In this document: positions 4,770 through 64,000 of the stretch, piece after piece
How the letters are laid out: every line of letters starts with the position of its first letter
How positions within the stretch are numbered: position 1 is the first letter of the stretch
From: Akkermansia sp.
Lineage (GTDB): Bacteria > Verrucomicrobiota > Verrucomicrobiia > Limisphaerales > SIBH01
Assembly (NCBI GenBank): GCA_043757045.1
Contig: JAYVQC010000241.1
Coordinates: forward strand, 10,410-74,409
Direction: 5' to 3'
DNA length: 64,000 nucleotides
Position numbers and translations under genes: made by a program
Notes under the pieces: generated by a model
Seen by the model: the letters and a program-made list of their open reading frames with translations, nothing else
The model's database searches: none
Told to the model about the DNA's origin: nothing

Positions 4770-4778
4770 GGCGATGTT

Positions 4779-14917: not shown

Positions 14918-14928
14918 GCGCTCCGCAC

Positions 14929-16977: not shown

Positions 16978-17652
16978 ATGAGCAATCAGAAGAAAGTGAA
17001 AATCAAAGTGCTGGCGGTTGATGACCACCCGGTCGTCGTGGAAGGCGTGCGTTCCTGCCTCCGTCCCTTTACGCAATTTGAGGTCGTGGGCGTGGCCGCA
17101 GGAGGAGAAGACGCGCTGGCCAAGGCCAAGAAACTTTTGCCCGATGTCATCCTCATGGACATCAACATGCCGGGCTTGGACGGACTGGAAACGACTCGTC
17201 GGCTCAAACAGGCCTGCCCGAAGGCCAGGGTGCTGATGTTCGCCGGGCGCGAGGAAAACGACGCGGTGGGAGAGATGATTCAGGCCGGAGCCAAGGGCTG
17301 CATCCGTAAGAGCGCGTCGGCAGAGGAACTGGTTTCCGCCATCGAACGCGTCCATCAGGGTGAAACTTTCTTCTCGGCGGATGTCGCGCAGATGTTTTTC
17401 GAGGATTACGTGAAGCGCGGCGGCCGGGCGCAGGAGAACGTGACCAAGCGCATTTCCGAGCGTGAGCGCCAGGTGCTGCACCTGATCGTAGAAGGCGCGG
17501 CGAATAAAGAGGCGGCGGATACCCTGCAAATTAGTGTTCGCACGGTCGAGAAGCACCGTCAGCGCATCATGAAGAAGCTGGGCGTCCACAAGGCCACGGA
17601 ACTCGTGCGATTTGCCATCACCAAGGGCATTGTGAATGTCGGGGCCTATTGA
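16978..17652 (+). CDS. NarL/LuxR-family response regulator (REC plus LuxR HTH), no kinase gene in the window
   Basis: ORF 16963..17652, with the ATG at 16978. REC has VLAVDDHPVV and DVILMDINMPGLDG (phospho-acceptor Asp present). The HTH reads ISERERQVLHLIVEGAANKEAADTLQISVRTVEKHRQRIMKKLGV. Confidence 0.9.
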   Translation: MSNQKKVKIKVLAVDDHPVVVEGVRSCLRPFTQFEVVGVAAGGEDALAKAKKLLPDVILMDINMPGLDGLETTRRLKQACPKARVLMFAGREENDAVGEMIQAGAKGCIRKSASAEELVSAIERVHQGETFFSADVAQMFFEDYVKRGGRAQENVTKRISERERQVLHLIVEGAANKEAADTLQISVRTVEKHRQRIMKKLGVHKATELVRFAITKGIVNVGAY

Positions 17653-17932
17653 GGTATGAGCTGCGCGGCCTTGTTTGCCGCCATTCCGACCGTTCACTTT
17701 TTGCGCCCGGTGCCCCGTCTTTTTTCGAGACTCGTCTGCCTCAGTTTGAGATTACGCAAGACAGCGTAATTTTTGGGTTCGCACTAAGGCGCAGGCTTTC
17801 GTTCGCACTTTACCCAGATTCACGGTTCGGAAGTCCGCCGTTAAAGATCTATGTACGTTGGTTCACCGAAAGGGAGGAAGAGGTTTCCCGGAAAAATGCA
17901 GGTGATACTCAACTAATGCCCGGAAGGGACCG

Positions 17933-19771
17933 ATGGATACGCACGAAGCTCGTGAAAGTTCGCAGCGAGTTTCTTCTGCCGGTCCGAATCAGAAAGTTTC
18001 AGAAGTAATGCTTGGAAACGCACAAAGCGCCGTTCCTGAATCAACAGGAAAGGCCTTATTGACCGATGATGCGCTGCAATGCCGCCGAGGAGCGGGATGG
18101 CAGCGCCAATTGGTTGTCACCATCGCCCTCATTGCGATGGCGGTCGTGCTTTTGCGCATCGTGGGCGGCGTGAACACTTGGGCCACGCACCGCCTCGAAG
18201 TCCTTCTGACCGTGGGCGGCATCGCCTTCTGGCGCTGGAGTTGGTTCCTCCTTCAGAACGTGCGGGCCATCATCTATCGCTACTGGGTATTTCCCCGCCT
18301 GCGCCGTGATGCCGAGCGCGCGGTGGCCGAGATGGGTCCGGTGCCGGAAGTGACCGTCCTCGCCACGACTTACCACGAGAAGCCTTGGATCACTCGCGCC
18401 GTCTTCGGCTCCATTTTCCGCGAACTCAGCACGCTGCAAGGTTTGGTTAAACCACCCACGCTGATTTGCATCGGCGGCTGCGACGAGGATGACGCGACCA
18501 TCCGCGCCATTCACGCCGAGTGCAGTGCGGAATTGACCCCCGCTGATCCGTCACAATGGCCGCCGAGACTCATCATCGGGCGTGGCGACAAGGGCAAGCG
18601 CCTTGCGCTCGGCCTCGGCATGGAGGAAATCTCCCAGCTTAGTCTGCGCGAAGACGGCGTGGTCATCATTCTCGACGGCGACACCATGTTTCAGACCGGT
18701 CTGCTCGCGAAGGTGCTGCCCATTTTCCGCCTCAAACCCACCGTCTCCGCCATTACAACGAATGAAGATGGCACGGTGAAAGGCGACCCTTGGATCGCGG
18801 AATGGACTTCGCTGCGCTTCGGTTTGCGCCATCGTTCCATGTGCTCGATTTCGCTCTCCGGCAAACTGCTCTGCCTCACCGGGCGTTTTTCTGTTTTCCG
18901 CGCGGCTGTGGTTATTGACCCGAGCTTCCGCGCACAGGTTGAGCACGATGTCATTCATCATTGGCTCTGGGGTTCCTTTGAAATGCTCAGTGGCGACGAC
19001 AAGAGCACCTGGTTCTGGCTGGCAAAGAATGGCCATCGAATGCTCTACGTGCCGGACGCGATGGTCTCGACGTTTGAAGTCGTCTCCGGTTCTGCGGTGC
19101 ATCGCGCGATGGCGAATACGCGCCGCTGGTCCGGCAACAGCGTGCGCCACGGCTGGCGGGCCATGATGCTCGGGCCGAAGAAGCTCGGCTGGTTCCCGTG
19201 GTATTGCCTCATTGATCAGCGGCTCACGATGCTGACAATTTTGTTCGGCCCGTCCGTCGCGATTTTCACCTGCGTGACGGGGCGGTGGGACATGGCGGCG
19301 GCCTATTTGCTTTGGGTTTTTTCCTCACGCATCGCGCACGCATCGATTTCATGGCGGCACGGACGGCGCTTCTCGGCCTACTACATTCCGCTGCAAGTGA
19401 TCGCGGACTGGGTCACGGCGCTGACGAAGTTGTGGGTCATTTTCCACCCGGCAAAACAGAACTGGATGAACCGCGGCAAGCGGACGCTGAACACGACGCA
19501 AGGCTCGGCGTTCTATAAATTGCGCACCGGCTTCGCCCACTACCTCTACGCGTTTTCTTGCGCGTGCGTGATGATCACGGTCGGGCTGGCGCTCGGCTTC
19601 CTCCCGATTTTCCGCGACACGCGGCTGTTCATGCGTTCGACGCCGGCTAAACAACAGACGGAGCCGAAGTCCGATTCTCAGGCGCGCAAACCTTTCTTCA
19701 ATTTCTTCGGCAAGCAAGTCGCCACGAAACCTATTTCACAAAACGCCCTGGCCGCGTCTCCCGAACTCTGA
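17933..19771 (+). CDS. alg8: Alg8-like family-2 glycosyltransferase (mannuronan-synthase type), polytopic membrane protein
   Basis: 612-aa ORF. Blocks match my recollection of Pseudomonas Alg8: VFPRLRR after TM2, ILDGDTMF (DxD), ITTNE, WTSLRFGLRHRSMCSISLSGKLLCLTGRFSVFRA, MLSGDDKSTWFWL, YVPDAMVSTFE and RRWSGNSVR (the QxxRW-equivalent). Multiple N- and C-terminal TM segments. The alternative start at 18008 cannot be excluded. Confidence 0.75.
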   Translation: MDTHEARESSQRVSSAGPNQKVSEVMLGNAQSAVPESTGKALLTDDALQCRRGAGWQRQLVVTIALIAMAVVLLRIVGGVNTWATHRLEVLLTVGGIAFWRWSWFLLQNVRAIIYRYWVFPRLRRDAERAVAEMGPVPEVTVLATTYHEKPWITRAVFGSIFRELSTLQGLVKPPTLICIGGCDEDDATIRAIHAECSAELTPADPSQWPPRLIIGRGDKGKRLALGLGMEEISQLSLREDGVVIILDGDTMFQTGLLAKVLPIFRLKPTVSAITTNEDGTVKGDPWIAEWTSLRFGLRHRSMCSISLSGKLLCLTGRFSVFRAAVVIDPSFRAQVEHDVIHHWLWGSFEMLSGDDKSTWFWLAKNGHRMLYVPDAMVSTFEVVSGSAVHRAMANTRRWSGNSVRHGWRAMMLGPKKLGWFPWYCLIDQRLTMLTILFGPSVAIFTCVTGRWDMAAAYLLWVFSSRIAHASISWRHGRRFSAYYIPLQVIADWVTALTKLWVIFHPAKQNWMNRGKRTLNTTQGSAFYKLRTGFAHYLYAFSCACVMITVGLALGFLPIFRDTRLFMRSTPAKQQTEPKSDSQARKPFFNFFGKQVATKPISQNALAASPEL

Positions 19772-19780
19772 ACATTCACC

Positions 19781-20995
19781 ATGAGCACCACCCCCAACGA
19801 CCAACCCAAAACCAAAGCGCCGGTCGCGCGCACCGTCGTGATCTGCCTCGTGCTGATTCTGACGCTTGCGGCCATTGCCCTCGCGATTCCGTGGGCGAAC
19901 TACCGTTACAAAAACATCGTCCTGCGCGAAGCGTCTGTGCGCGGTGCGGTCACCAAGCTCGGGGCGCGCATTGATGGGCGCATCAAGAGCATCGAAGTCG
20001 TACCCGGCCAGATCGTGACCAAAGGCCAGATCCTTTTGCGGATGGAAGACAGCCACTTGCGCGCGGCGCTGGAGCGGGCGCGGGGTGATCTGAAGTCCGC
20101 CAAGCTTGAACTCGAAAACGAAAAACTCAGTATCGCCCAGGCCCGTCGCCGCCTGATTTTCGAGATTGATCGCAGCAAACTCGCCATCAAAAAGGCCACC
20201 AGCGAAGTCGCCGCCCAGACCAGCAGCCTCACCCGCTTGGAGAAACAATACGACCGCGTCTCAGCCCTCGTTAAGACCGGCGCCGCCGCCGTCGCCGAAC
20301 TCGACAAAATCACCGGCGACCGCGACCGCTCCCTCGCCTATGTCAACTCCGCCGGCACCTCCCTCGAAGTCGCCGAGACCAACCACGAACGCGCAAAGTC
20401 CGAACTCGAAGGACTGCAAATCCGCGAAAACCGCCTCGGCGTCATGGAAGTACAAATCGCCGTCGCCCAAGCCAAAGTGGACATCGCCGAAGCCGACATC
20501 GAATCCGCCATCGTCACCGCCCCCGAAGACGGCCGCGTCATCGAACGCATCGTCAACATCGGCGGCTCCGCCAAAGTCGGCGAGCCCATTCTCTCCGTGT
20601 GGATTGGCAAAGCCTGGGTCGAGGCGTGGGCTGATGAGCGCGACCTGCACAAGATTCAAACCGGCAGTCCCGTGGACATTTCCTTCGACTCCTCACCGGA
20701 TCGCAAACTGACCGGTCGCGTCGAAAGCATCGGCCTGATGACCGACAAGCAGATGGCTCCGAGCCTCGTGCCCACGACGCTGCACGCCTTCATGCGGAAC
20801 AGCGCGATGGTGCCGATTCGCATCGCCCTTGATGACGAGAATCCGCCTGTGCAACTCGGACTCTCCGTCCTCGTTGGCATCCGCAAAGGCGCGGAATCCG
20901 AGTCCATCGCCAAGAAAACGAACGCCACCAAAAACGGCACCGCCACCATTTCCCGTCCCAGCAGCAGCACCGAGCCTTCTGTCACGAAACTCTAA
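19781..20995 (+). CDS. HlyD-type membrane-fusion protein in the Alg44 position, but without a PilZ domain
   Basis: 404-aa ORF starting 9 nt after the synthase. About 17 cytoplasmic residues, then a TM (VVICLVLILTLAAIALAI), a lipoyl hairpin (GRIKSIEVVPGQIVTKGQILLRMED), a long coiled-coil and a beta-barrel (DGRVIERIVNIGGSAKVGEPILSV). The N-terminus is too short to hold a ~100-aa PilZ domain. Confidence 0.8.
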   Translation: MSTTPNDQPKTKAPVARTVVICLVLILTLAAIALAIPWANYRYKNIVLREASVRGAVTKLGARIDGRIKSIEVVPGQIVTKGQILLRMEDSHLRAALERARGDLKSAKLELENEKLSIAQARRRLIFEIDRSKLAIKKATSEVAAQTSSLTRLEKQYDRVSALVKTGAAAVAELDKITGDRDRSLAYVNSAGTSLEVAETNHERAKSELEGLQIRENRLGVMEVQIAVAQAKVDIAEADIESAIVTAPEDGRVIERIVNIGGSAKVGEPILSVWIGKAWVEAWADERDLHKIQTGSPVDISFDSSPDRKLTGRVESIGLMTDKQMAPSLVPTTLHAFMRNSAMVPIRIALDDENPPVQLGLSVLVGIRKGAESESIAKKTNATKNGTATISRPSSSTEPSVTKL

Positions 20996-21071
20996 AACTC
21001 GAAACCAACAGTCCGTTCCAAAACACAGCAGTTCCAAAAACAACAACACCAGAAATCAGAAAGCAGAAAAT

Positions 21072-22532
21072 ATGAAAGTAAGCATCTTCGGTCTCGGATA
21101 TGTCGGGTGCGTCACCGCCGCCTGTTTGGCGAAGGATGGCCACGAAGTCGTGGGCGTGGACGTCGTCGCCTCCAAAGTGGAAAAACTGGCCGCCGGCCGG
21201 GCCACCGTGGTGGAGACGGGTCTCGACGAACTCATCGCGGAGGGTCATCGCACCCGCCGCATCACCGCCACCACCGATGGTCGCAAAGCCGTCCTCGAGA
21301 CGGACGCCTCCATCGTCTGCGTCGGCACGCCCACTGGCAGCGACGGGCAGATGGACCTCACGGCCCTGCGCGCCACCATCGAGTTCATTGGCCGCGCCAT
21401 GCGCGCCAAGATGGACCGCCACGTCGTCATCATGCGCAGCACCGTTCCGGCCGGCACGGCGGAATCGGTCGTGTTGCCGCTGCTCAATCCGAACACGCCG
21501 CCGGCGGCTCTGTTCGCGGACAGCAACCTGATCGTGGTGCCGGAATTCCTGCGCGAAAGCTCGGCCATCGCGGATTATTATGATCCGCCGTTCACGCTGG
21601 TCGGCAGCGCCTCCGGCAAGCCCGACAACAACGCCGAAGTGGTGGAAGAACTCTTCGGCCACATCACCGGCAGCGTGCAGTGGGTGCCGCTCCGCGAAGC
21701 AGAAATGTTGAAGGCCGTGTGCAACGCCTTCCACGCCCTTAAGGTCGCGTTCGCGAACGAAGTCGGCGCGCTCTGCACCGCGATGTCCATTGACGGCCAC
21801 AGCCTGATGGCTCAGTTCGTCAAAGACACCAAGTTGAACATCTCTCCGGCCTACATGCGCCCCGGCCTGCCTTTCGGCGGCTCCTGCTTGCCGAAGGATT
21901 TGCGGATGCTCTGCCAGGTGGCGGGCGATCACGGCGTGGACCTGCCGCTCTTCCGCGGCACGCTGTCCAGCAACGAAGCCCACCTCAAGCGGGTGCTCGA
22001 CCTGGTGCCGAGCCACGGCTCGCGCCGCATTGGTTTGAACGGCCTGGCCTTCAAGTCCGGCACCGACGATTTGCGCGAAAGCCCGATTGTCTTTATCGCC
22101 GAGCATCTCATCGGCAAGGGCTACGACGTGAAGATTCACGATCCTGGCATCCATGAGTCGCTGCTCACCGGCGCGAACAAGGAATACATCGAGACCCGCA
22201 TTCCGCATCTCTCCAGCCGGCTCGTGCCGACGCTCGAGCAGTTGATAGAGCATTCGGACATCCTGTTGCTCACGCGCAACGGCGAGGAACTCGTGCAGAA
22301 GGTCGTGGAATCCGGCAAGCGCCCGATCCTCGTGGACCTGCGCGGTCAGGACAAACTGGTGAAGAAACTTCTCCAGTCCCGCAAGACCAAGAAGGCCATC
22401 GGCGAGGACGCCCTCCTGCCCTCACCGCAGCACGGCAACCGTCCCGCGCCCATCGCCAAGAACGGCGGACGCCCGACAAATGGCAATGGCAACGGCCACA
22501 GCAACGGACGCAAAGACCTGGTCAAAATGTAA
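21072..22532 (+). CDS. algD: GDP-mannose 6-dehydrogenase (AlgD-like; UDP-glucose/GDP-mannose dehydrogenase family)
   Basis: Listed ORF 20829..22532. The real start is the ATG at 21072 (MKVSIFGLGYVGCVTAACLA). Block-for-block similarity to remembered P. aeruginosa AlgD: SIFGLGYVG, VGVDV...K, ICVGTP, VPEFLRESSAIADYYDPP, MRPGLPFGGSCLPKD, GLAFKSGTDDLRESP, GANKEYIE..IPH. It carries a Gly/Asn/Pro-rich C-terminal tail. Confidence 0.85.
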   Translation: MKVSIFGLGYVGCVTAACLAKDGHEVVGVDVVASKVEKLAAGRATVVETGLDELIAEGHRTRRITATTDGRKAVLETDASIVCVGTPTGSDGQMDLTALRATIEFIGRAMRAKMDRHVVIMRSTVPAGTAESVVLPLLNPNTPPAALFADSNLIVVPEFLRESSAIADYYDPPFTLVGSASGKPDNNAEVVEELFGHITGSVQWVPLREAEMLKAVCNAFHALKVAFANEVGALCTAMSIDGHSLMAQFVKDTKLNISPAYMRPGLPFGGSCLPKDLRMLCQVAGDHGVDLPLFRGTLSSNEAHLKRVLDLVPSHGSRRIGLNGLAFKSGTDDLRESPIVFIAEHLIGKGYDVKIHDPGIHESLLTGANKEYIETRIPHLSSRLVPTLEQLIEHSDILLLTRNGEELVQKVVESGKRPILVDLRGQDKLVKKLLQSRKTKKAIGEDALLPSPQHGNRPAPIAKNGGRPTNGNGNGHSNGRKDLVKM

Positions 22533-22591
22533 TTGGAATTGAACGGACGGCCCGCCGCAGCGCCGAGCTGCGGCGGGCTTGCTCGCAAACT

Positions 22592-22683
22592 GAAAAGCAG
22601 AAAGCACAACACAGAAATGAATTCACTAAAGCCCAGGACGCCCTTCTGCTTTCTGCTTTCTGCTTTCTGCTTTCTGCTTTTGC
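22592..22683. repeat. Hairpin element with heptamer-repeat arms (aaagcag)n / (tttctgc)n spanning the epimerase start codon
   Basis: The left arm is gaaaagcagaaagca (22592..22606), upstream of the ATG at 22617. The right arm is ttctgctttctgctttctgctttctgcttttgc (22644..22683), covering codons 10-22. Confidence 0.8.
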
Positions 22684-24494: not shown

Positions 24495-24544
24495 TTTTTT
24501 CCGCCGACATGATGAACTACGTGTTAGAAAAAACTTTGGTGACA

Positions 24545-40456: not shown

Positions 40457-40505
40457 CGCGCGCCCCGCGTGACGGGGCGGCGAGAGCAAAGATTTGTTTT
40501 CAACT

Positions 40506-46504: not shown

Positions 46505-46559
46505 CGACCAATGGTCAGGGCAACGCAACAAAACAAAACTCAGCGAGTAAGTTAAAATT

Positions 46560-47225: not shown

Positions 47226-47241
47226 GAACGGTCTGTCCAGA

Positions 47242-47269
47242 GCGCGGCGCGCGTGCGTCGCGTTTTTTT
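47242..47269 (+). terminator. Candidate intrinsic terminator after the second response regulator
   Basis: GC-rich imperfect hairpin (gcgcggcgcgcgtgcgtcgcg) followed directly by a T7 run, 17 nt after the stop at 47225. Confidence 0.45.
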
Positions 47270-47681
47270 ACGCCTGATTCCTGGCGGGGTGGGAATCGTG
47301 CGGAGGAGGGTGTTACGCAATTACACCACGCTGGCGGATGCGCGTTTTACCCAGATGGAACGCAACTTGGGCGGCGGCTACGGTTGGCGCGCTTTGAGGG
47401 GGTTCGCGCCTGGTGGCTGGAGGGCAGCCGCGCGGGTCTTCGGAGCGGCGCGAGGAGGGGCGTGGAAACACGCCTCGTTCGGAGGGCGGAAATCCCGTGG
47501 TCGAGACGCGGGAGAAGAGCTTTGGGCGCGCGCAGTTTTGGGAACAGCCTCCATCGAGGGTCGGTGGTCAACCACAGAACGCACTTTTAACCGCGTGATT
47601 CAGGCTATGAAGAACTGTTTCACCCGCAGAATTTGCCGCGCCGAAATTACAGCCGCAGGCGCGGAATGTCGCATTAGTCAC

Positions 47682-57581: not shown

Positions 57582-57593
57582 GCGGAGGCCCGA

Positions 57594-57656
57594 GGTCCAA
57601 GGTCCAAGGCCGGGCGTCTGGTGTGGGCACGACATTGGACATTGGACTTTGGACCC
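57594..57656. repeat. Hairpin with heptamer-repeat arms (ggtccaa)n / (ttggac.)n, 13 nt after the stop of the 3,300-aa gene
   Basis: ggtccaaggtccaagg (57594..57609) pairs with cattggacattggactttggaccc (57633..57656). It is followed by tcccgcc-cc-ggcggga and a T6 run (57664..57692), so it may act as a terminator. Confidence 0.75.
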
Positions 57657-57714
57657 ACGGTGGTCCCGCCCCGGCGGGAGCACGGCTTTTTTGGAATTAG
57701 TAATTTAACGAATC

Positions 57715-60621
57715 ATGAGAAAGACATTGGAAGCGAAATGGTGGCTGGTGCTGGCACTGGCCGCGCTGGCGGTGCCGTCGGTGCAGGCGGCGTGTTCTTA
57801 TTCCGTCGCACCCGGCGGGAGCAATCACGGCAGCAGCGCGCGGACGAATAGTTTCAGCGTGCTGGCAGGCACGGGCTGCGCGTGGAGCGTGGTGAATACC
57901 AGTGCGTGGATCACGGTGCAGTCCGGCGCGAGCGGCACGGGCACGGGCTCTGTGACGTATGCGGTGTCGGCGAATCTCGACTCGGTCGCGCGCGCGGGAT
58001 CGCTGGTGGTGAGCGGCGCGCTATTCAATGTGTCGCAGGACGGCGTGCCGTGTAATTACGCGGTGTCGCCGGTGAGCCGCAATCACGGCGCGGCGGGCGC
58101 AGGCCCGGGCAATCCGCCGAATCCGATTCAAGTTTCCGCGGCGACGAATTGCGCGTGGACGGCCACGACGACGAGCAGTTGGCTCACCTTCCCCGGTGTG
58201 ACGAGCGGAGTCAGCACTGGCTCGGTGCCATACTATGTGGCGGCGAATACGACGCCGTTGTCGCGCACGGGCGTGGTGAACATCGCCACGCGCACCACGA
58301 CCATCAGCCAGAATCCCGCGAGCTGCCTTTACGAGTTGTCGCCCACGAACCGTCTGCACGGCTTTGCGGGTTCGACGGGCTTGGTGAGTGTGGCGACGCT
58401 GGGAGATCCGGTTTGCAGTTGGTTTGTGAATAACACGAATCCGTGGATCACCATCACGGTGAACGCCACGGGGACGAACGCCGGAAGTTTCGGCTATTCC
58501 GTGGGGCCCAACCCGAACAACAGCGCGCGCACCGGGACGTTTTATGTTTGGGATCAGGCGTTCACGGTGTTTCAAAACCCCACGCCGTGCTCGAACGCGG
58601 TCATCATGCCGACCTCCGCCAGTCCCGACGCTGATGCGCAGACGAACACGGTGAGCGTGACGCCGGTCGGAGGCTGTCCGGACTGGTTGGTGGTGAATAC
58701 GAACGCGTGGATTGCCGTGTCGCCGTTGAGCGGCGCCGGCAACGGGGTGGTGACCTGGAGCGTCGCGTTGAATTCGAGTGCCACCGGGCGCACGGGCGTG
58801 GTGCGGATCGCGGAGCAAAATTTCACGGTTCGCCAGGGGGGCGCGGTGTGTGATCCCAAGCTCTCGGCCACGAACCGTCAGCACGGTTACGGCGCCACGA
58901 CGGCCTCGGTGCAGCTCACGGTCTTGAGCACTTGCCCGTGGACGGTGGTGAATACGAATCCGTGGATCAACATTTTGACGGCGACAAGCGGGACGGGCAG
59001 CTCCTCGAACGCGTATGCGTTGTTGCAAAACACGAATCTCACGGAGCGCACGGGGAATGTGGTCATCGCGGGCCAGGTGCTGAACATCCGGCAGGGGGGC
59101 GCGAGTTGCGCCATCAGCCTTTCGCCCACCAACCGCCCCCACGGCCACGGCGCGTCGTCGCCGACGAACCTCATCAGCGTCAATACCGGAGCCGGTTGCG
59201 CGTGGAGCGTGGTCAACACGAACAGTTGGCTCACTTTCACGGGGGGCACGAATGGCACGGGCAGCAACTCGTTGAACTACATCTTCGGTGCGAATCCTTC
59301 CAGCACGCAGCGCGTCGCCGTCATCACCGTCAACGAGGCATTCGCGGTTATCACGCAGAGCGGTGCTCCTTGCACCCCTGGCATCGTCCCGAATTCCGAC
59401 ACCCACACGGCGGCGGCAGAGGTCGGAAACGTCGCGCTCTCGCTCCCGTTGGGCTGCGCGTGGAGTGTCATGAATACAAACCCGTGGGTCGTCTCGGTCA
59501 GCCCGTTGAGCGGTAACGGCGGGACGAACATTACTTACACGCTCGCCACGAATCTTTCGCCAAACACGCGCATCGGCACCGTGATGATTGCTGGTCTCCC
59601 CTACACTGTTACGCAGGATGGCGTGATCTGCTCCTACCGTCTCTCGCCCACGAACCGAGCGCACGGTTTTGGCAGCACGTCGAATTACGTGACCATGATC
59701 GTGAGCAACCCCTGCCCGTGGTCAGTGGCCACGACCAACAGTTGGATCACCCTCGTCACGGCCACGAACGGGGCCGGGACCCAGGACATCGGTTATCTCA
59801 TCGCCGCGAATCCCACCACGCAGGAACGCATCGGCAGGATCTTCGGGCAGGGTTCCACCTGCGTCATCACGCAGCGCGGCGTGACTTGCAGTTACTCGCT
59901 GTCCCCCTCGGGCCGCACGCATGTTTCTTCCCCGACTAACGCGTCATTCAATGTGTTCGCCTCGTCGATCTGTGCGTGGACGGTCTCCAACACGAACAGT
60001 TGGGTGACCATCACCTCGTCCACCAATGGCATGGGCGACGGCTCGGTCTCCTACTCCATCACCACCAATGCCGGGGCCGTGGCGCGCTCGGGTAACATCC
60101 TGGTCGCGGATCAGCTGTATGCCCTCACGCAGTCGCCGTTCACCTGCACTTACAAGCTCTCGCCCACCAACCGCACCCACGGCTTCGGCGCGAACACCAA
60201 CACGTTCGACATCACGGCCGGCCCCGGCTGCGCGTGGACCGTAGCCACGACCAATAACTGGATCACCTTCCTCTCCCCGACCTCCGGCTCGGGCAATTTC
60301 ACCAACTTCAAATACAGTTTCAGCGCCAATTTCGGTCCCGGCACCCGTGTGGGACAAATCACGCTGTTGAACGAGGTGCTCATCCTGAACCAGACCGCAC
60401 CGACGAACGGCTTCGAGTTCGAGTTGGTCTCGGTGAGTCCGACGGGTGATTTGAACGTCCGCCTCGGCGGCGGTCCGGCCGGCATCTGGGAGCTGCAAGC
60501 CTCCACCAATCTGTCGAGTTGGACCAAGATCGCCAACCTGACGAACACGTCGGGCCGCGTCGAATACCACGCTCCGCCGCCGCTCGCGCCGATGAAATAT
60601 CTGCGCGCTGTGCTGCCGTAA
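57715..60621 (+). CDS. Secreted protein made of ten tandem BACON-like ~86-aa repeats plus the C-terminal module
   Basis: 968-aa ORF with signal peptide MRKTLEAKWWLVLALAALAVPSVQA. Repeats start at ACSYSVAP, PCNYAVSP, SCLYELSP, PCSNAVIMP, VCDPKLSA, SCAISLSP, PCTPGIVP, ICSYRLSP, TCSYSLSP and TCTYKLSP. Each has an internal C.W.V.N.N.WIT and ends in ..R.G.i...G....V.Q. The C-terminus is GPAGIWELQASTNLSSWTKIANLTNTSGRVEY...MKYLRAVLP. Confidence 0.9.
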   Translation: MRKTLEAKWWLVLALAALAVPSVQAACSYSVAPGGSNHGSSARTNSFSVLAGTGCAWSVVNTSAWITVQSGASGTGTGSVTYAVSANLDSVARAGSLVVSGALFNVSQDGVPCNYAVSPVSRNHGAAGAGPGNPPNPIQVSAATNCAWTATTTSSWLTFPGVTSGVSTGSVPYYVAANTTPLSRTGVVNIATRTTTISQNPASCLYELSPTNRLHGFAGSTGLVSVATLGDPVCSWFVNNTNPWITITVNATGTNAGSFGYSVGPNPNNSARTGTFYVWDQAFTVFQNPTPCSNAVIMPTSASPDADAQTNTVSVTPVGGCPDWLVVNTNAWIAVSPLSGAGNGVVTWSVALNSSATGRTGVVRIAEQNFTVRQGGAVCDPKLSATNRQHGYGATTASVQLTVLSTCPWTVVNTNPWINILTATSGTGSSSNAYALLQNTNLTERTGNVVIAGQVLNIRQGGASCAISLSPTNRPHGHGASSPTNLISVNTGAGCAWSVVNTNSWLTFTGGTNGTGSNSLNYIFGANPSSTQRVAVITVNEAFAVITQSGAPCTPGIVPNSDTHTAAAEVGNVALSLPLGCAWSVMNTNPWVVSVSPLSGNGGTNITYTLATNLSPNTRIGTVMIAGLPYTVTQDGVICSYRLSPTNRAHGFGSTSNYVTMIVSNPCPWSVATTNSWITLVTATNGAGTQDIGYLIAANPTTQERIGRIFGQGSTCVITQRGVTCSYSLSPSGRTHVSSPTNASFNVFASSICAWTVSNTNSWVTITSSTNGMGDGSVSYSITTNAGAVARSGNILVADQLYALTQSPFTCTYKLSPTNRTHGFGANTNTFDITAGPGCAWTVATTNNWITFLSPTSGSGNFTNFKYSFSANFGPGTRVGQITLLNEVLILNQTAPTNGFEFELVSVSPTGDLNVRLGGGPAGIWELQASTNLSSWTKIANLTNTSGRVEYHAPPPLAPMKYLRAVLP

Positions 60622-60714
60622 CCGTCACGACCGCACGAGGATGAATCAAGTTTTGCCAAGGACGCACGATGAATAGCGGAAACGCGCGAAGCAAAATTCG
60701 GGAACCAATTTGAA

Positions 60715-63700
60715 ATGAGAAAGTGTTTGAACACGCTGTTGCAGGCGGGGGTGCTGTCTTTGGCCCTCGCCTTCGCCGTTGAGACCGCCGGTGCGGATCG
60801 CGTGCTGCGCGCGCACGACTTCACCGTGGCCCGGGGTCAGACGAACACGTTGCGCATCTCGCTGGAAAGCCTCGGGGATGTGAACGCGCTCGGCTTCACC
60901 GTCTGTTTCGATACGAACCTCTTCGCCCTGGTGCCGCCCGTGCGGCGTGGCGCGGCGATCAGCAACCTGTATCCCTCCGCCACCTTCACGCCCAACACCG
61001 CCGCGCTGGAGACCAACGGCTGGATCGGCCTCGTCATCGGCCTCGACATCGGGACGGGCGAGACCTGGCCGACGGGGACCAATCAACTCGTCGAAATGGA
61101 TTTCCGCGCGCTGCCCGGCACCGGCTCCAGCAACGCGGCCATTGAGATTTGCGACAAAGTCACGGCCCCCGAAATGTCCAACGCCGACGCGCAACCCCTC
61201 GTCGCGAGCTACAGCCACGCGAACGTGCTCGTCACCGGCGACTGCACGTACGCGCTGAACACAAATTCGGCCAGTGTCGCTTTCAGCGGCGGCTCGCGCA
61301 CGGCGAATGTCCTCACCGACTTCATCTGCGCGTGGACGGCGGAGAACACGAACGCGTGGATTCAATTCACCTCCGTGACCAACGGCACCGGCGCGGGCAG
61401 CGTCACGTTCAACGTCGCGTTGAATCCAGAACTCGCTCCGCGCACCGGCACGCTGACCATCGCCGGACAAACTTTCACGGTGAACCAGGCGGCGTTCGTC
61501 TGCGATTACGCGATCACGCCCACAACGCGCATGCACGCCCCCGGCGCGGAAACGAACAGCGTCAGCCTCAGCACCAGCAACCAATGTCCGTGGACCATCG
61601 AGAACACGAACAGTTGGATCACGATCCTTTCCCCGCTGAGCGGCACGGGCAGCACCACCGTGGACTACCGCCTCGCCGCGAATCCGAACATCGTTCCGCG
61701 CACCGGCACCGTGGTCATCGCGGGCCAGACGCTCACGCTCGCGCAAGACCCGCTGATTTGCACCTACGCGCTCACGCCGACGAGCCGCAGCCACGCGCCC
61801 ACTGCCGGCACCAATTCTTTCTCCTTCACCGCGCCCGCGCCCTGCGCGTGGACGGCAGCGACGACGAACAACTGGATCGTGCTCATCTCCGGCCTGAACG
61901 GTTTGGGAAATGGTTCCGTGAGCTACCGCCTGCTCGCCAATGCCAACAGCGTGTCGCGCGCGGGCAGCATCGATCTGAGCGGTGAAAACTTTGCCGTGAC
62001 GCAGGACGGAGCGCCCTGCGATCCCGTGCTCACGCCGTCGGGCCTCAGCCACGGTTTCAACACCGCCACCGGACTCGTCAGCGTGGCGCTACCGACCGGT
62101 TGTGTGTGGAACGCTTCGACGACGAATTCCTGGATCACCATTGATTCCGGCACAAGCGGCCTCGGCACCGGCACGGTCGGCTACACCGTCGCGTCGAACG
62201 CGCAGTTCACCTCGCGCCTCGGCGTCATCACCATCGCAGGCGCGGCCTTCACCGTGTCGCAGTCGGGTGCGCCCTGCCCCACCACACTTGATCCCGTCAG
62301 CGCCACGCTCGGCCACAACGCTGCCACCGGCACCGTCAGCGTCGCCGTCGCTGGCCCGTGCGCGTGGACGACGGAGAACACGAACGCGTGGGTGCAAATT
62401 CTTTCCGGCAGCGGCACCAGCACCGGCACCGTGACCTACGCGGTCGCACCAAACACGAACATCACTGCCCGCGTCGCCACGCTGATTATCGCGGGCGAAA
62501 TCTTCTCGCTCACACAAAACGGCGCGCCCTGCGCCTACGCGCTCACGCCTGCGAATCAAAATCTCGGGCCGAACGCCGTGACCAATTCCTTCACCGTGAC
62601 CGCGCAGGCCGGCTGCGCCTGGACCGTGGACAACACGAACTCGTGGATCACGATCCAGTCCGGCGCGAACGGCAACGGCGGCGGCGTGGTGACCTACTCG
62701 CTCGCGGCCAACCCGATCGCCGTCAGCCGCACCGCCACGATTCTCGTCGCCGACCAGAGTTTTGCCATCACGCAGGACGCCGCCGCCTGCACCTTTGCCC
62801 TTTCCGTCACCACGCGCACCCACGGCCCAACCGCCGTGACGAACAGTGTGGTGCTGACCACGCTCACGGGCTGCGCCTGGACGATCTCGAACCTGAATTC
62901 TTGGATTACGTTCCCCGCCGGCACGAACGGCAGCGGAACCTTCACAAACATTTATCAAGTTGAGGCCAATCCTGATCCCGTGGGCCGCACCGGCGTGGTC
63001 ATGATCGCGGGCCGAGTCCTGACCATCGCGCAAAATCCCGCGCCGTGCTCGTACGCGTTGAACCCCACGAGCCGCGCGCATGGTTCCGGCTCCGAGACTG
63101 GGCTCGTCAGTGTCACCACGCATCCGCTCTGCAACTGGACCGCCGTGCCGTCTGCTTCTTGGATCATCATCAACACCGGCGCGAGCAACTCCGGCCCCGG
63201 CAGCATCGGCTACACGCTCGCGGCGAACACCAACGGCGCGGGCCGCACGGGCTTCATCGCCGTCAACGGGCAGGCCAACACTATCACGCAGGCGGGATTG
63301 CCGTGTGTCTTCGCGATCACGCCTACGAACGCGTCGCATGGTTTCAACGCCGTCACCGCCAGCGTCGCCGTCGCCACACTCGAAGGCTGCAACTGGACGA
63401 TCAGCAACACGAACAGTTGGATCACGATTCTCTCTGGTCTGAACAATTCGGGGAGCAACACCTTGATCTACGCACTCGCCGCGAATCCCAGCACGCTGCC
63501 GCGCGCGGCAGTCGTCGTCATCGCGGGAATTGAATTCTCCATCGCGCAGAACGGTGCGCCCTGCACTTACACGCTGATCCCCGGCAGCCGCCTGCATCCC
63601 GCCAGCGCGGACACGAACTCGCTCATCATCGAGGCGGGCAGCAACTGCGCCTGGGCCGCCAGCACCACGAACGCGTGGCTCGCCTTCACCAGCGCCACGA

Positions 63701-64000
63701 ACGGCGCGGGCACGAACACCATCAGCTACACCATTGCGGCGAATCCGAATCCCGCGCAGCGGGTCGGCGCGCTGTTCGTGGACGGAAAGACTTTCGTCGT
63801 CACGCAACTCGCCCTTGTCTGCGAAATCACCCTGACGACCACGAGCCGCAACCACGGCGCGGGTGCGGACACAAACACGATTGGCGTCACCGCCAACGGT
63901 GCGGGCTGCCCGTGGAACGCTACCACCGTCGCCAGTTGGATCAGCCTCACCGGCGCGAGCGGCACCGGCGATGGCGCGGTGACTTACACGCTCGCCTCGA
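60715..64000 (+). CDS. Secreted protein with an N-terminal cohesin-like domain followed by at least 11 BACON-like repeats; 3' end beyond the window
   Basis: Not in the ORF track (open at the window end). ATG at 60715 gives MRKCLNTLLQAGVLSLALAFAVETAGA, then DRVLRAHDFTVARGQTNTLRISLESLGDVNALGFTVCFDTNLFALV, then repeats such as CTYALNTNSASVAFSGGSRTANVLTDFICAWTAENTNAWIQFTSVTNGTGAGSVTFNVALNPELAPRTGTLTIAGQTFTVNQ. These continue without a stop to base 64000. Confidence 0.85.
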   Translation, partial: MRKCLNTLLQAGVLSLALAFAVETAGADRVLRAHDFTVARGQTNTLRISLESLGDVNALGFTVCFDTNLFALVPPVRRGAAISNLYPSATFTPNTAALETNGWIGLVIGLDIGTGETWPTGTNQLVEMDFRALPGTGSSNAAIEICDKVTAPEMSNADAQPLVASYSHANVLVTGDCTYALNTNSASVAFSGGSRTANVLTDFICAWTAENTNAWIQFTSVTNGTGAGSVTFNVALNPELAPRTGTLTIAGQTFTVNQAAFVCDYAITPTTRMHAPGAETNSVSLSTSNQCPWTIENTNSWITILSPLSGTGSTTVDYRLAANPNIVPRTGTVVIAGQTLTLAQDPLICTYALTPTSRSHAPTAGTNSFSFTAPAPCAWTAATTNNWIVLISGLNGLGNGSVSYRLLANANSVSRAGSIDLSGENFAVTQDGAPCDPVLTPSGLSHGFNTATGLVSVALPTGCVWNASTTNSWITIDSGTSGLGTGTVGYTVASNAQFTSRLGVITIAGAAFTVSQSGAPCPTTLDPVSATLGHNAATGTVSVAVAGPCAWTTENTNAWVQILSGSGTSTGTVTYAVAPNTNITARVATLIIAGEIFSLTQNGAPCAYALTPANQNLGPNAVTNSFTVTAQAGCAWTVDNTNSWITIQSGANGNGGGVVTYSLAANPIAVSRTATILVADQSFAITQDAAACTFALSVTTRTHGPTAVTNSVVLTTLTGCAWTISNLNSWITFPAGTNGSGTFTNIYQVEANPDPVGRTGVVMIAGRVLTIAQNPAPCSYALNPTSRAHGSGSETGLVSVTTHPLCNWTAVPSASWIIINTGASNSGPGSIGYTLAANTNGAGRTGFIAVNGQANTITQAGLPCVFAITPTNASHGFNAVTASVAVATLEGCNWTISNTNSWITILSGLNNSGSNTLIYALAANPSTLPRAAVVVIAGIEFSIAQNGAPCTYTLIPGSRLHPASADTNSLIIEAGSNCAWAASTTNAWLAFTSATNGAGTNTISYTIAANPNPAQRVGALFVDGKTFVVTQLALVCEITLTTTSRNHGAGADTNTIGVTANGAGCPWNATTVASWISLTGASGTGDGAVTYTLAS
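60795..61240 (+). other. Cohesin-like domain (last protein)
   Basis: FTVARGQTNTLRISLESLGDVNALGFTVCFDTNLFALVPP...NGWIGLVIGLDIGTGETWPTGTNQLVEMDFRALPG...ASYSHANVLV, parallel to the two other cohesin-like modules. Confidence 0.5.

Follow-up and report, generated by a model that had tools for sequence, protein, structure and literature searches.

The alginate systems, to which the locus described here is most readily compared, employ Alg44 with its PilZ domain, AlgK and AlgE. An alternative route composed of synthase, membrane-fusion adaptor and TolC has precedent in PMC13438883 and in Maeda 2018, as cited therein, such a route having been proposed for cyanobacterial cellulose and for rhizobial mixed-linkage glucan. 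The window analysed in this work, a stretch of 64,000 nt from a contig assigned to Akkermansia sp. and regarded here as that of a Pedosphaera-like Verrucomicrobium from soil, carries from position 16978 to its end a block of 47 kb in which genes for polymer synthesis are followed by genes for very large secreted proteins. To our knowledge, no described system joins an alginate-type synthesis and export machine to giant lyase-headed secreted proteins.

Gene order and its conservation

ORF listing and translation revealed 12 consecutive genes, all residing on the + strand:

16978-17652, + strand: RR1, NarL/FixJ-type response regulator with REC and GerE HTH domains (Pfam Response_reg 1.4e-27, GerE 1.6e-18)
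17933-19771, + strand: GT2, Alg8-type membrane-integrated processive synthase, 612 aa (Pfam Glyco_tranf_2_3)
19781-20995, + strand: MFP, EmrA-like periplasmic adaptor (Pfam HlyD_3, HlyD_D23; NCBIfam EmrA/EmrK subfamily)
21072-22532, + strand: GMD, AlgD-type GDP-mannose 6-dehydrogenase with three UDPG_MGDP_dh domains (Pfam)
22617-24494, + strand: putative epimerase, AlgG-like right-handed beta-helix protein with signal peptide and DPHD at 264-267 (Pfam Beta_helix/NosD)
24545-40456 (ORF opening at 24509), + strand: PL6 giant, 5,303 aa, with signal peptide, PL6 head, a region of Ig-like and BACON domains, some 30 Ig_3/I-set domains and, C-terminally, a domain of about 80 aa (Pfam)
40506-41951, + strand: OMP, TolC-family outer-membrane factor (Pfam OEP twice, 3e-69; NCBIfam TolC subfamily 1.4e-61)
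41948-46504, + strand: PL8 lyase, 1,518 aa, with signal peptide, Lyase_8 N, mid and C domains, CBM96, Big_7, two PA14, He_PIG and C-terminal domain (Pfam)
46560-47225, + strand: RR2, NarL-type regulator with degenerate receiver (Pfam REC and GerE; alignment)
47607 or 47682 to 57581, + strand: LTD giant, about 3,300 aa, with two PA14/GLEYA, Ig, Big_5, six LTD, CotH, He_PIG, cohesin and C-terminal domain (Pfam)
57715-60621, + strand: BACON-array protein 1, 968 aa, with signal peptide and C-terminal domain (Pfam BACON, seven stretches, 1.5e-33)
60715-64000, + strand: BACON-array protein 2, truncated at the end of the window after more than 1,095 aa, with signal peptide (Pfam BACON, eight stretches, 5e-37)

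Order and strand thus agree with what a preceding sequence-only reading had described, the listed starts reproduce its gaps of 9, 76, 84, 50, 49, -4, 55, 133 and 93 nt exactly, and long leaders were found only after the two response regulators (280 nt after RR1, about 380-455 nt after RR2). The gap of -4 nt corresponds to the PL8 ATG, which overlaps the OMP stop codon (ATGA). Nearly all domains named in that reading were recovered when the proteins were searched against Pfam profiles.

For 11 same-strand continuations in a row the naive chance probability is about 5e-4; finding the order again in divergent relatives is the stronger argument against a chance arrangement. The succession of RR, GT2, MFP, (GMD), epimerase, PL6 giant, TolC, PL8, RR and LTD giant was found in other Verrucomicrobiota at 50-70% protein identity and is kept down to about 50-60% identity, so that the assumed synteny holds. 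The order from GT2 over MFP and (GMD) to epimerase and PL6 giant is present in eight verrucomicrobial loci, as is the adjacency of the latter two genes, with PL6-giant orthologues of 4,572 aa (L001) and 5,099 aa (L003). PL6 giant, OMP, PL8, RR and LTD giant follow each other in L086, L093 and L095, and PL6 giant, OMP and PL8 do so in L094, whereby the OMP orthologues of these four loci (54-74% identity) reside between PL6 giant and PL8, and the LTD-giant orthologues behind PL8 and RR share 76% (L086), 56% (L093) and 47% (L095) identity. L003 and L093 belong to a single 140-kb contig which bears the whole order at 50-68% identity. In the rearranged locus L011 the LTD giant directly follows GT2-MFP-RR (51% identity over 2,487-2,488 aa), and the clusters of L001, L003 and L014 lack GMD. 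An RR gene adjoins or lies within the cluster in L003, L006-L009, L011, L012, L014 and L019; a HisKA_3 kinase adjoins it in L003 and L005. As GT2-MFP-GMD-epimerase was also found without giants in other lineages (L005, L017, L020, Planctomycetes, Myxococcales), the giants are a clade-specific addition.

Predicted polymer synthesis and export

Whether the synthase belongs to the Alg8 clade or is a generic GT2 enzyme was assessed from its homologues, which at 52-82% identity carry the names Alg8 or mannuronan synthase (IMG and NCBI sources). More distant relatives head roseobacter clusters with AlgI-, AlgX- and AlgF-type genes. The residues conserved within GT2 (DGD 248-250, DDK 355-357, E382 and RW 398-399) include counterparts of Alg8 E322 and RW339-340 (PMC4436075). 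Judged by how sources name its homologues, by its cluster context and by the positions of these residues, GT2 is hence placed in the clade that public sources name Alg8. The AF2 model of the protein (pLDDT 82), with matches among hyaluronan, cellulose and chitin synthases, documents a processive-synthase fold alongside the conserved motifs. For the dehydrogenase, the AlgD-like assignment was likewise upheld: the P. aeruginosa GMD structure (PDB 1mfz) is matched over residues 1-425 with 396 bits (E 2.3e-117), whereas the best UDP-glucose dehydrogenase reaches 207 bits (E 5.9e-60), and the latter identity was rejected. Given this strong homology, the enzyme is expected to supply GDP-mannuronate. 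The DPHD protein claimed as epimerase was recovered as an AlgG-like beta-helix protein whose YGIDPHD aligns with the YGLDPHD of AlgG (PDB 4ozy, E 4.5e-15); its NCBIfam AlgG score of 102 bits is far under the equivalog cut-off of 700, and it is considered a putative mannuronan C5-epimerase.

The main departure from alginate systems is the export route through TolC, on which the sequence-only reading was silent. The MFP carries an N-terminal TM helix, and its AF2 model (pLDDT 82) shows helices at 91-166 and 171-242, forming an alpha-hairpin with about 75 residues per arm, for which EmrA in EmrAB-TolC is the best Foldseek match (E 1e-24). An identity as Alg44 was excluded by this EmrA-like long hairpin, by the lack of a PilZ domain in the MFP and by the naming of its homologues as multidrug-efflux MFP, in no case as Alg44. 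Within the block no AlgK, AlgE, AlgX, AlgI, AlgJ, AlgF or AlgL was found. As Alg44, AlgK and AlgE are replaced here by an EmrA-like adaptor and a TolC-family channel, a tripartite synthase-adaptor-TolC export is proposed. A sealed adaptor-TolC duct would shield the polymer from a periplasmic epimerase; this would mean either an extracellular site of action for the epimerase or an incomplete duct model.

The giant secreted proteins

Every giant protein possesses a signal peptide. A C-terminal domain of about 80 aa is shared by the PL6, PL8, LTD and BACON-1 proteins; the BACON-2 sequence is truncated where the window ends. The PL6 head (Pfam Chondroitinas_B, 7.7e-105) is carried on a stalk in which Ig and BACON domains extend over about 4,800 aa. 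By its best PDB hits, the head is far closer to alginate lyases (7o84 and AlyGC, 1e-90) than to chondroitinase B (3e-30), and an AlyGC R241A mutant entry is among its PDB matches. K247 and R268 are its candidate catalytic residues; their spacing equals that of K220 and R241, the catalytic pair of AlyGC. The suggestion that the giants trim the polymer thereby gains support.

In the PL8 protein the triad N214, H264 and Y273 is present by spacing. Its catalytic part is nearest to xanthan lyases (6f2p, 1e-206; 2e24, 3e-178), followed by hyaluronate lyases (about 1e-80), and not to known alginate lyases. Of the two uronate-specific lyase families assumed before, the PL6 member therefore appears alginate-lyase-like, whereas the PL8 member, though its domains were confirmed, resembles xanthan lyases. 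The postulated binding of the polymer receives some support from the CBM96 region of the PL8 protein, which matches an alginate-binding module (7vbo, 2.3e-8), the founding CBM96 member being known to bind alginate (PMC9971899); however, CBM96/DNRLRE is a broad family, which counts against this reading. In the LTD giant, LTD, CotH and cohesin were verified by Pfam, but the dockerin assumed for it was detected neither by Pfam (E<=0.01) nor by an EF-hand regular expression. That the proteins with LTD, CotH, cohesin and BACON domains organise the matrix is speculative.

Regulators and leader elements

The phospho-acceptor Asp of RR1 is canonical, and in this window RR1 has no neighbouring histidine kinase gene. 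RR2 is indeed atypical, as the alignment revealed its phospho-acceptor Asp to be exchanged for Asn and the conserved Thr for Gly, while the HTH recognition helix is identical in both regulators. The RR2 orthologue in L086 is 96% identical; that in L093 retains the Asp and is REC-only. The leaders behind both regulator genes contain the following elements:

17752-17769, + strand: box A, palindrome TTACGCAAGACAGCGTAA (TTACGY-N6-GCGTAA), read directly
17801-17821, + strand: box B, GTTCGCACTTTACCCAGATTC, conserved motif in the GT2 leader, 124 nt ahead of the ATG
47242-47270, + strand: GC-rich, terminator-like hairpin with a trailing T7, 17 nt past the RR2 stop
47313-47358, + strand: LTD-giant leader with box A-like half-site TTACGCAA at 47313 and box B ATGCGCGTTTTACCCAGATGG at 47338-47358

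The hairpin is taken as only a hint of a terminator, since terminator-like sites overall are not above shuffled expectation. As the mechanical start of the LTD-giant ORF (GTG 47253) falls inside the hairpin and T-run, the true start is placed downstream.

In this window as well as in relatives, the leader motif GCRCRYTTTACCCNGATKG precedes both the GT2 and the LTD-giant unit, and TTTACCCAGAT has only two copies, both exact, in the window (17809 and 47346; 0.21 expected). GT2, GMD and LTD-giant units all show box B (GCRCRYTTTACCCNGATKG) clearly in their leaders. It was found in orthologous leaders of L006-L009, L011, L012, L019, L086 and L093, among them those that precede the LTD-giant orthologues in L086, L093 and L011; every unit with a readable leader begins with this leader module. 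TTYACCCNGAT matches 17 sites within 1.54 Mb (window and loci), of which 14 are + strand leader sites of cluster units, some of these units having arisen by rearrangement (L011, L012 and L019), a count to be read with box B having been defined after inspection of the leaders and close relatives being non-independent observations. Upstream of box B, TTACGY-N6-GCGTAA is clear in GT2 and GMD leaders (L006, L008, L009, L012 twice and L014, at the same relative position) and only partial in LTD-giant leaders. Box A is a candidate target of a GerE-type dimer, and the NarL-type regulators of the cluster are the likely binders of the leader boxes. The common leader motif supports co-regulation of the synthase and LTD-giant units, so that the idea of one transcriptional neighbourhood is retained in this sense, but the block probably comprises at least three transcription units rather than one.

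Proposed function of the cluster

In the suggested model, the AlgD-type dehydrogenase would initially provide GDP-mannuronate, which the Alg8-type GT2, if this is its substrate, would turn into polymannuronate threaded across the inner membrane. Next, the polymer would leave by the tripartite synthase-adaptor-TolC route, and the secreted AlgG-like DPHD protein may convert some M to G. Outside the cell the PL6 and PL8 proteins would trim and bind the polymer, whereas the LTD/CotH/cohesin giant and the BACON arrays may serve as scaffold or binding partners, this being the weakest step. As RR2, devoid of the phospho-acceptor, keeps the RR1 recognition helix and is the last gene of the first unit, immediately ahead of the LTD-giant leader, a feed-forward cascade is suggested that would run from RR1 over the synthase unit including RR2 to the giant-protein unit; the identity of the binder and the cascade are deduced, while the leader motif and its conservation are observed.

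The earlier idea of a self-produced uronic-acid matrix accompanied by giant proteins is partly supported: it stands with respect to GMD and GT2 identity and synteny, and it gains support for trimming and some support for binding, whereas the organising role is speculative, the PL8 catalytic part is nearest to xanthan lyases and the dockerin was not detected. We lean modestly towards a co-regulated alginate-type exopolysaccharide system with synthase-adaptor-TolC export, whose giants trim and bind the polymer. As far as homology and gene order indicate, an alginate-type matrix would be the function of this block, which may represent a conserved matrix gene cluster of Pedosphaerales-type Verrucomicrobiota.

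Gene order and domain content

The sequence-only reading had described twelve consecutive plus-strand genes from position 16978 to the end of the window (G+C about 63%), a layout which was borne out by ORF listing and translation, whereby the most plausible starts reproduced the gaps of 9, 76, 84, 50, 49, -4, 55, 133 and 93 nt exactly and long leaders were found solely behind both regulator genes, where they measure 280 nt for RR1 and about 380-455 nt for RR2. Profile-HMM annotation with Pfam confirmed the assigned domain content, bar the dockerin of the LTD giant, which was found neither by Pfam nor by regular expression. The five large secreted proteins of the block (PL6 giant, PL8, LTD giant, BACON proteins 1 and 2) are referred to as the giants.

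Genes of the block in their order, all on the plus strand, with Pfam domain content
RR1 (from 16978): response regulator, REC+GerE
GT2: synthase, Glyco_tranf_2_3
MFP: HlyD-type adaptor
GMD: nucleotide-sugar dehydrogenase, three domains
EPI: putative epimerase, right-handed beta-helix protein
PL6 giant: 5,300 aa, N-terminal Chondroitinas_B (PL6), BACON domains, about 30 Ig_3/I-set domains
TolC-family outer-membrane protein: two OEP repeats
PL8 lyase: 1,518 aa, with CBM96, Big_7, two PA14, He_PIG
RR2 (46560-47225): response regulator, REC+GerE
LTD giant: about 3,300 aa, PA14/GLEYA, six LTD, CotH, He_PIG, cohesin
BACON proteins 1 and 2: two BACON-array proteins, the second cut by the window end

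For the LTD giant, the mechanical GTG start (47253) falls within a hairpin that carries a T7 run and lies immediately 3' of RR2; its true start is 47607 or 47682. Scans for promoter and terminator consensus sequences remained at chance level, the hairpin after RR2 alone being worth noting. Upstream of the block the following features were identified:

3084-10160: unrelated carbohydrate genes, i.e., GH39 (minus strand), an FkbM-type methyltransferase and a GT61-type glycosyltransferase, together with an S9 peptidase with VHL beta domain and an AraC-PAS regulator
12050-16149, minus strand: a TPR/YfiO-like protein (913 aa; gene at 12050-14791) and a second HlyD-type adaptor (406 aa), divergent from the block
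16150-16977: AT-richer non-coding region of about 800 nt between the block and the divergent genes

Considered as AlgK-like partners of the cluster, the minus-strand TPR and HlyD genes were discarded, as they are not kept beside the cluster in relatives.

The synthesis core

The assignment of GMD as an AlgD-like dehydrogenase held: its best PDB match is 1mfz, the GMD of P. aeruginosa (E 2.3e-117, 396 bits, full length), and the alternative of a generic UDP-glucose dehydrogenase came out against, the best match of that kind reaching 207 bits. For the synthase, the Alg8-like assignment agrees with the labels 'glycosyltransferase Alg8' or 'mannuronan synthase' which IMG and one NCBI MAG give to GT2 homologues of 52-82% identity. 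Such homologues number in the hundreds, and at least 574 relatives of the Alg8-type GT2 were found in species-level genomes, many Cyanobacteria among them. In dozens of cyanobacterial genomes (loci L029-L085; hosts include Calothrix, Tolypothrix, Leptolyngbya, Rivularia and Nostoc) Alg8-type GT2 genes of about 37-43% identity occur, and for most of them tblastn detected neither an MFP nor a GMD or epimerase gene nearby. Relatives at a greater distance (31-35% identity) reside on roseobacter plasmids and Rhizobium chromids, and relatives in this range head clusters with MBOAT, ALGX and AlgF genes. On plasmid plas2 of Loktanella salsilacus (L092, 7588-19254), the order is dehydrogenase, GT2, hypothetical, ManC-type nucleotidyltransferase, beta-helix, MBOAT, ALGX, ALGX and AlgF, which is an alginate cluster including the O-acetylation set; a near-complete alginate-type cluster was also seen on a Jannaschia sp. 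M317 plasmid (L091), and the RefSeq names for the genes of both clusters are mostly generic.

The AlphaFold model of GT2 (pLDDT 82) matches the fold of hyaluronan synthases, BcsA and chitin synthases, and hence GT2 is taken as a membrane-integrated processive synthase. Among the residues invariant in 31 GT2 homologues are DGD 248-250, DDK 355-357, E382 and RW 398-399. For P. aeruginosa Alg8, E322 was reported to be essential and an RW motif to lie at positions 339-340 (PMC4436075), so that E382 and RW 398-399 of GT2 stand at a constant offset of about 59-60 residues; a literature search on D296 and K297, catalytic residues of Alg8, found nothing. An exact-sequence look-up of GT2 returned no record. 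GT2 gave no NCBIfam Alg8 match and no useful PDB match by sequence or profile, the PDB being without an Alg8 structure. Taken by source names, cluster context and residue positions, the Alg8-type nature of GT2 appears well supported, if indirectly.

EPI matches AlgG structures in the PDB at E 4.5e-15, with its 'YGIDPHD' aligned to 'YGLDPHD', and scores 102 bits against the NCBIfam AlgG equivalog, far under the cut-off of 700. This low score would be expected if the polymer were another GDP-mannuronate-derived or altogether different glycan and the AlgG-like protein acted as a lyase or by binding, and not as an epimerase, a reading which also draws on the lack of a direct NCBIfam or PDB match for GT2, on the missing O-acetylation genes and on the resemblance of PL8 to xanthan lyase, a cleaver of the mannose-glucuronate linkage. 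It is considered unlikely, as the AlgD-type GMD, the Alg8-type GT2, the DPHD beta-helix, PL6 and CBM96 are together explained most simply by polyM or polyMG and distant GT2 relatives occur in clusters with AlgI, AlgX and AlgF.

With the alginate system of Pseudomonas and Azotobacter (algD-8-44-K-E-G-X-L-I-J-F-A) the block shares an AlgD-type dehydrogenase, an Alg8-type GT2, an AlgG-like beta-helix protein with the DPHD motif, the placing of a lyase gene among the biosynthetic genes and the synthase-dependent logic. It differs from that system in that it lacks Alg44 (PilZ, c-di-GMP) and, with Pfam run over the 12 genes, AlgK, the AlgE porin, AlgX, AlgI, AlgJ, AlgF, AlgA and the PL5 lyase AlgL; no Alginate_lyase (PL5), MBOAT or ALGX match was obtained, PL6 and PL8 lyases being there instead. 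Further differences are an EmrA-like adaptor with a long hairpin, a TolC-like outer-membrane part, a lyase that forms the PL6 head of a 5,300-aa protein and a predicted control in which NarL-type regulators are joined by a leader motif specific to the cluster. Alginate core genes combined with a loss of outer-membrane and modification loci are known from the atypical operons without algKE or acetylation genes described in a survey of 1,733 complete genomes (Bundalovic-Torma et al. 2020, PMC7112194), in whose main text the word Verrucomicrobia does not occur; the TolC/MFP replacement, the giant lyases and the shared leader motif appear to set the block apart from these operons.

The adaptor and the export route

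The MFP has about 13 cytoplasmic residues ahead of its transmembrane helix, and its model consists of this N-terminal helix and a hairpin whose two arms are helices of some 75 residues, which would be of the TolC-docking type. In structure the MFP comes closest to EmrA of the EmrAB-TolC pump (E 1e-24) and to MacA, and homologues carry the name multidrug-efflux MFP. No PilZ match was obtained by Pfam, NCBIfam or model, nor an NCBIfam match to Alg44; an identity as Alg44 was ruled out by the missing PilZ, the very short cytoplasmic N-terminus and the EmrA-like fold. GT2 and MFP adjoin in every verrucomicrobial, planctomycete and myxobacterial locus spanning the region, with the MFP first in the planctomycete loci L022 and L023. 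A TolC-family protein is encoded inside the block in place of AlgK/AlgE, and a TolC gene was found on the contig of GT2 in four relatives, in three of which the gene context was read.

Routes of this kind have precedents: for the rhizobial mixed-linkage glucan made by BgsA/BgsB, a requirement for tolC was shown genetically (PMC13438883), and for cyanobacterial cellulose a route of GT2, HlyD-type adaptor and TolC was proposed (Maeda 2018, as cited in PMC13438883). As in these systems, the gene of a processive GT2 adjoins that of an HlyD/EmrA-type adaptor, and a TolC-family factor would be needed or linked; unlike them, the block is predicted to yield a polyuronate from a GDP-sugar and not a neutral glucan from UDP-glucose, holds its TolC gene in the cluster along with epimerase, lyases and giants, and has no detected c-di-GMP-binding domain. 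Given the missing AlgK/AlgE and further Alg proteins, the EmrA-like adaptor, the in-cluster TolC and the precedents, export of a polymannuronate-type polymer by a synthase-adaptor-TolC route is regarded as the most economical mechanism. A sealed duct would hide the polymer from a periplasmic epimerase, hence it is possible that the epimerase works extracellularly or that the duct is unsealed.

In other bacteria, giant adhesins with Ig repeats leave the cell by type I secretion, and EmrA-, HlyD- and TolC-type parts are standard in efflux pumps and type I secretion alike, from which it could be argued that MFP and the TolC-like protein serve a type-I-like export of the giants, or small-molecule efflux, and not polysaccharide export. 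This is judged highly improbable, as the block offers no ABC, MFS or RND inner-membrane partner, the five giants carry N-terminal Sec-type signal peptides unlike type I substrates, the MFP gene starts 9 nt past the GT2 stop and comes next after GT2 in almost every verrucomicrobial locus, and polysaccharide export through GT2, MFP and TolC has the precedents mentioned. The same features, i.e., the lack of both a dedicated ABC transporter and signal-peptide-free substrates, set the giants apart from Azotobacter AlgE epimerases and giant adhesins, which rely on type I secretion (ABC, MFP and TolC, C-terminal signal); the giants end in a different, beta-rich C-terminal domain. The likeness lies elsewhere: AlgE epimerases are extracellular alginate-modifying enzymes too, and adhesins of the LapA, SiiE and MpIBP type likewise have a very long Ig-like 'extender' holding a functional head off the cell.

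Lyase heads and the architecture of the giants

The PL6 head finds its best matches in the alginate lyases 7o84 (307.8 bits) and AlyGC 5gkd (304.3 bits), both at E about 1e-90, and also matches poly-M lyases, with chondroitinase B scoring far lower (108 bits, E 3e-30). Its residues K247 and R268 are separated by 21 positions, as in the catalytic pair K220/R241 of AlyGC, and an AlyGC R241A mutant entry is among the PDB matches of the head. The catalytic part of PL8 comprises all three Pfam domains Lyase_8_N, Lyase_8 and Lyase_8_C; its nearest structures are the xanthan lyases 6f2p (1e-206) and 2e24, with hyaluronate lyases at about 1e-80, and N214, H264 and Y273 show the 50/9 spacing of the catalytic residues in the PL8 family. 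Both heads thus resemble characterised enzymes with the spacing of their catalytic K/R and N/H/Y residues kept. Characterised PL6 and PL8 enzymes come from polymer-degrading bacteria and measure about 430-1,040 residues, whereas the PL6 head of the block continues into a fused stretch of some 4,800 aa with Ig and BACON domains and both lyase genes are embedded in a biosynthetic cluster. The CBM96 module of the PL8 protein reached 100 bits with Pfam and matched PDB entry 7vbo at 2.3e-8; the founding member of CBM96 was reported to bind specifically to internal alginate chains (PMC9971899).

These properties bear on whether the giants might form a catabolic, outward-directed apparatus for foreign uronic-acid polymers (Pseudomonas or Azotobacter alginate, xanthan-like gums, plant or algal polymers), whose lyases feed the cell and do not trim its own matrix. 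Such a role would fit a PL6 head closest to enzymes which PDB depositors call alginate or poly-mannuronate lyases only, characterised PL6 relatives stemming from alginate-degrading bacteria, and a PL8 whose nearest counterparts are xanthan lyases from Paenibacillus and Bacillus that degrade xanthan; extracellular depolymerases typically carry CBM and PA14 modules, and in L005, a locus with the core but without giants, PL7 and PL5 lyases border the core. However, Pfam detected no uptake or catabolic genes in the block, neither an oligo-alginate lyase nor a transporter nor a gene of the KdgF or DEH-reductase type, and the lyase genes sit in among those for biosynthesis and export, the PL8 start overlapping the TolC stop codon. 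Canonical alginate operons include a lyase as well, namely AlgL (PMC8829089), and a catabolic role is considered quite improbable.

Next to their signal peptides, the four complete giants have in common a weakly conserved C-terminal domain of about 80 aa (...W..V......G...F........RFYR..), encoded at:

40199-40453, plus strand: shared C-terminal domain
46247-46501, plus strand: shared C-terminal domain
57324-57578, plus strand: shared C-terminal domain
60364-60618, plus strand: shared C-terminal domain

It is C-terminal also in the orthologues of the giants in L086, L093, L094 and L095 and has no Pfam or NCBIfam match. A profile search of a 1.84-billion-protein library (E<=1e-3) returned 1,520 representatives, in which the domain often forms the extreme C-terminus and sometimes lies internally or in up to 10 tandem copies. 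As a consequence, the idea of a strict sorting signal was weakened, and the domain is better described as a common module, not a proven sorting signal. At the DNA level, Tandem Repeats Finder detected no tandem copies in the giants, whose repeats are old. BACON protein 2 has, behind its signal peptide, an N-terminus (60715-61000; RVLRAHDFTVARGQTNTLRISLESLGDVNALGFTVCFD...) that looks cohesin-like by eye, with no cohesin detected there by Pfam at E<=0.001.

Conservation of the gene order

Co-occurrence of the cluster genes was searched for by tblastn on 85 GT2-anchored loci and by gene tables, and synteny in relatives was found. The order RR, GT2, MFP, (GMD), EPI, PL6 giant recurs in eight verrucomicrobial loci with a GT2 identity of 60-95%, including PL6 giant orthologues of 4,572 and 5,099 aa; the closest genomic matches of GT2 are two 'Pedosphaera sp.' MAGs (L006 and L007, 94-95% identity; order Pedosphaerales, Verrucomicrobiota). 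The full order is seen on a 140-kb forest-soil contig (L003 and L093), which encodes HK, RR, GT2, MFP, EPI, PL6 giant, TolC, PL8 (1,659 aa), REC and an LTD/CotH giant (3,390 aa), the proteins being 50-68% identical to those of the window. PL6 giant, TolC and PL8 follow each other again in L094, and in L095 and the closer L086 the same order continues with the LTD giant; L086 was the one informative locus from a metagenome scan with the TolC protein, the context in L087 and L088 being different. In the long-read-type contig L095 (1-18252), gene calling broke up PL6 giant, PL8 and LTD giant into several genes apiece, probably through frameshift sequencing errors and not as real pseudogenes.

A giant-free core of GT2, MFP, GMD and EPI exists in L005/L027, L017 and L020, in Planctomycetes and in Myxococcales, with other Verrucomicrobiota among these more distant lineages, and is in L005 accompanied by PMI, PL5 and PL7 alginate-lyase genes. 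Together with the wide distribution of the shared C-terminal domain, the probable division of the block into several transcription units and the fact that multidomain secreted proteins with LTD, CotH, BACON and PA14 domains are common in the phylum, this speaks for a reading in which two or three independent modules lie side by side by shared ancestry only: an alginate-type EPS module from RR1 to EPI, and unrelated secreted enzymes or adhesins (PL6 giant, PL8, LTD giant, BACON proteins) that own their TolC and regulator. Against it stand the order kept at 50-68% identity on the forest-soil contig and also in L094 and L095, a leader motif, box B, that heads both the synthase and the LTD-giant units in several genomes, and the PL6 head and CBM96, which indicate the same polymer class as the synthase. 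Moreover, in a rearranged verrucomicrobial MAG (L011, 4737-16712) the order is box B, GT2, MFP, RR, box B and LTD/CotH giant (51% identity over 2,487-2,488 aa), without PL6 giant, TolC or PL8 in between; as the LTD giant directly behind GT2-MFP-RR survives this rearrangement, a functional tie between it and the synthase genes is argued for. Weakened by synteny and the shared leader element, independence of the modules is regarded as unlikely.

Leader motif and regulators

Both long leaders contain TTACGCAA as well as TTTACCCAGAT, the latter at 17809 and 47346 as the sole matches in the window (0.21 expected). The leader elements are:

16774-16781: TTACGCAA copy, 204 nt upstream of the RR1 start, also in L006
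17069-17076: TTACGCAA copy within the RR1 coding sequence
17752-17769: box A, palindrome TTACGCAAGACAGCGTAA in the GT2 leader, of which TTACGCAA forms part
17801-17821: box B in the GT2 leader
47338-47358: box B in the LTD-giant leader

The copy at 16774-16781 might be a sign of RR1 autoregulation. In 1.54 Mb (window and fetched loci) TTYACCCNGAT occurs 17 times, whereby 14 matches are plus-strand leader sites with the extended form GCRCRY-TTTACCCNGAT-KG, a motif spotted post hoc in loci whose closest relatives are not independent of each other. Box B lies 5' of GT2 in the window, L006, L007, L008, L009, L011 and L012, 5' of GMD in L012 and L019, where the operon is split by an RR gene, and 5' of the LTD giant in the window, L086, L093 and L011; a degenerate form (GCGTASTTCACKCGGATTG) is found in the GT2 leaders of L003 and L014. 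A palindrome of the type TTACGY-N6-GCGTAA precedes box B by about 24-45 nt in most leaders of GT2 and GMD units, whereas LTD-giant leaders have it as a half-site or imperfect version only. Since the flanking leader sequence is unconserved between divergent loci, box B was considered a phylogenetic footprint. Rfam at gathering thresholds found no family in the window, known c-di-GMP riboswitch families included.

According to their alignment, RR1 and RR2 have identical recognition helices. The claim that the second regulator is atypical proved right: RR2 has Asn at the position of the phospho-acceptor Asp and Gly at that of the conserved Thr, a degenerate receiver also seen in the close relative L086, while RR1 keeps its phospho-acceptor Asp. 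The L093 orthologue retains the Asp, is REC-only and counts 156 aa, and because it differs from the form of the window and L086, the regulator at this position was reasoned to evolve quickly. The leader element is a candidate operator/promoter module of the cluster with the GerE-type regulators as its likely binders, and since RR2 closes the first unit, directly before the second leader, the arrangement suggests a feed-forward cascade of the regulators. For the one apparent transcriptional neighbourhood of the sequence-only reading, co-regulation is supported by the box B common to the synthase and LTD-giant leaders; the block probably consists of several transcription units.

A proposed polyuronate matrix and its implications

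Bacterial alginate synthesis was worked out almost entirely in Pseudomonas and Azotobacter, and aggregate or biofilm building by Verrucomicrobiota, abundant in soil, is little studied. As a tentative and at most possible reading, the block would encode an extracellular matrix of Verrucomicrobiota of the Pedosphaerales type, in which an alginate-like polyuronate leaves the cell through an adaptor-TolC duct and NarL-coupled giants cut, hold and pattern it. The mechanism, which we infer from sequence and context, assumes that the polyuronate is extruded by a duct of synthase, EmrA-like adaptor and TolC, whereby NarL-type regulators, through the dedicated leader element, would hard-wire polymer production to the giant surface proteins. 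Among the latter, the PL6 alginate lyase would be carried on an Ig stalk possibly spanning about 100-150 nm, and the CBM96/PA14 PL8 lyase, the LTD/CotH/cohesin scaffold and the BACON arrays would complete the protein set, so that the whole may be seen as a bacterial counterpart of a proteoglycan-type matrix.

Each part comes from a known family, and there are earlier examples of synthase-dependent EPS clusters as well as of synthase-MFP-TolC routes. In line with the earlier statement that no described system of this composition is known, searches of the open-access full-text literature turned up no verrucomicrobial alginate-type cluster. Within that literature four features appear undescribed: an alginate-type core that is paired with both an EmrA-like adaptor and a TolC encoded within the cluster, the conserved 4,500-5,300-aa PL6 'lyase on a stalk', the joint presence of a PL8/CBM96 lyase and an LTD/CotH giant within one cluster, and the dedicated leader motif. 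The motif (GCRCRYTTTACCCNGATKG) offers a handle for regulator binding, reporter fusions and regulon scans, and PL6 head, PL8 head and CBM96 module are small enough for expression and assay. If the proposed matrix holds true, alginate-type polymers would be made far beyond the Gammaproteobacteria, a tripartite efflux-like route would be able to replace AlgK/AlgE export, and polymer synthesis could be coupled genetically to giant polymer-processing proteins.
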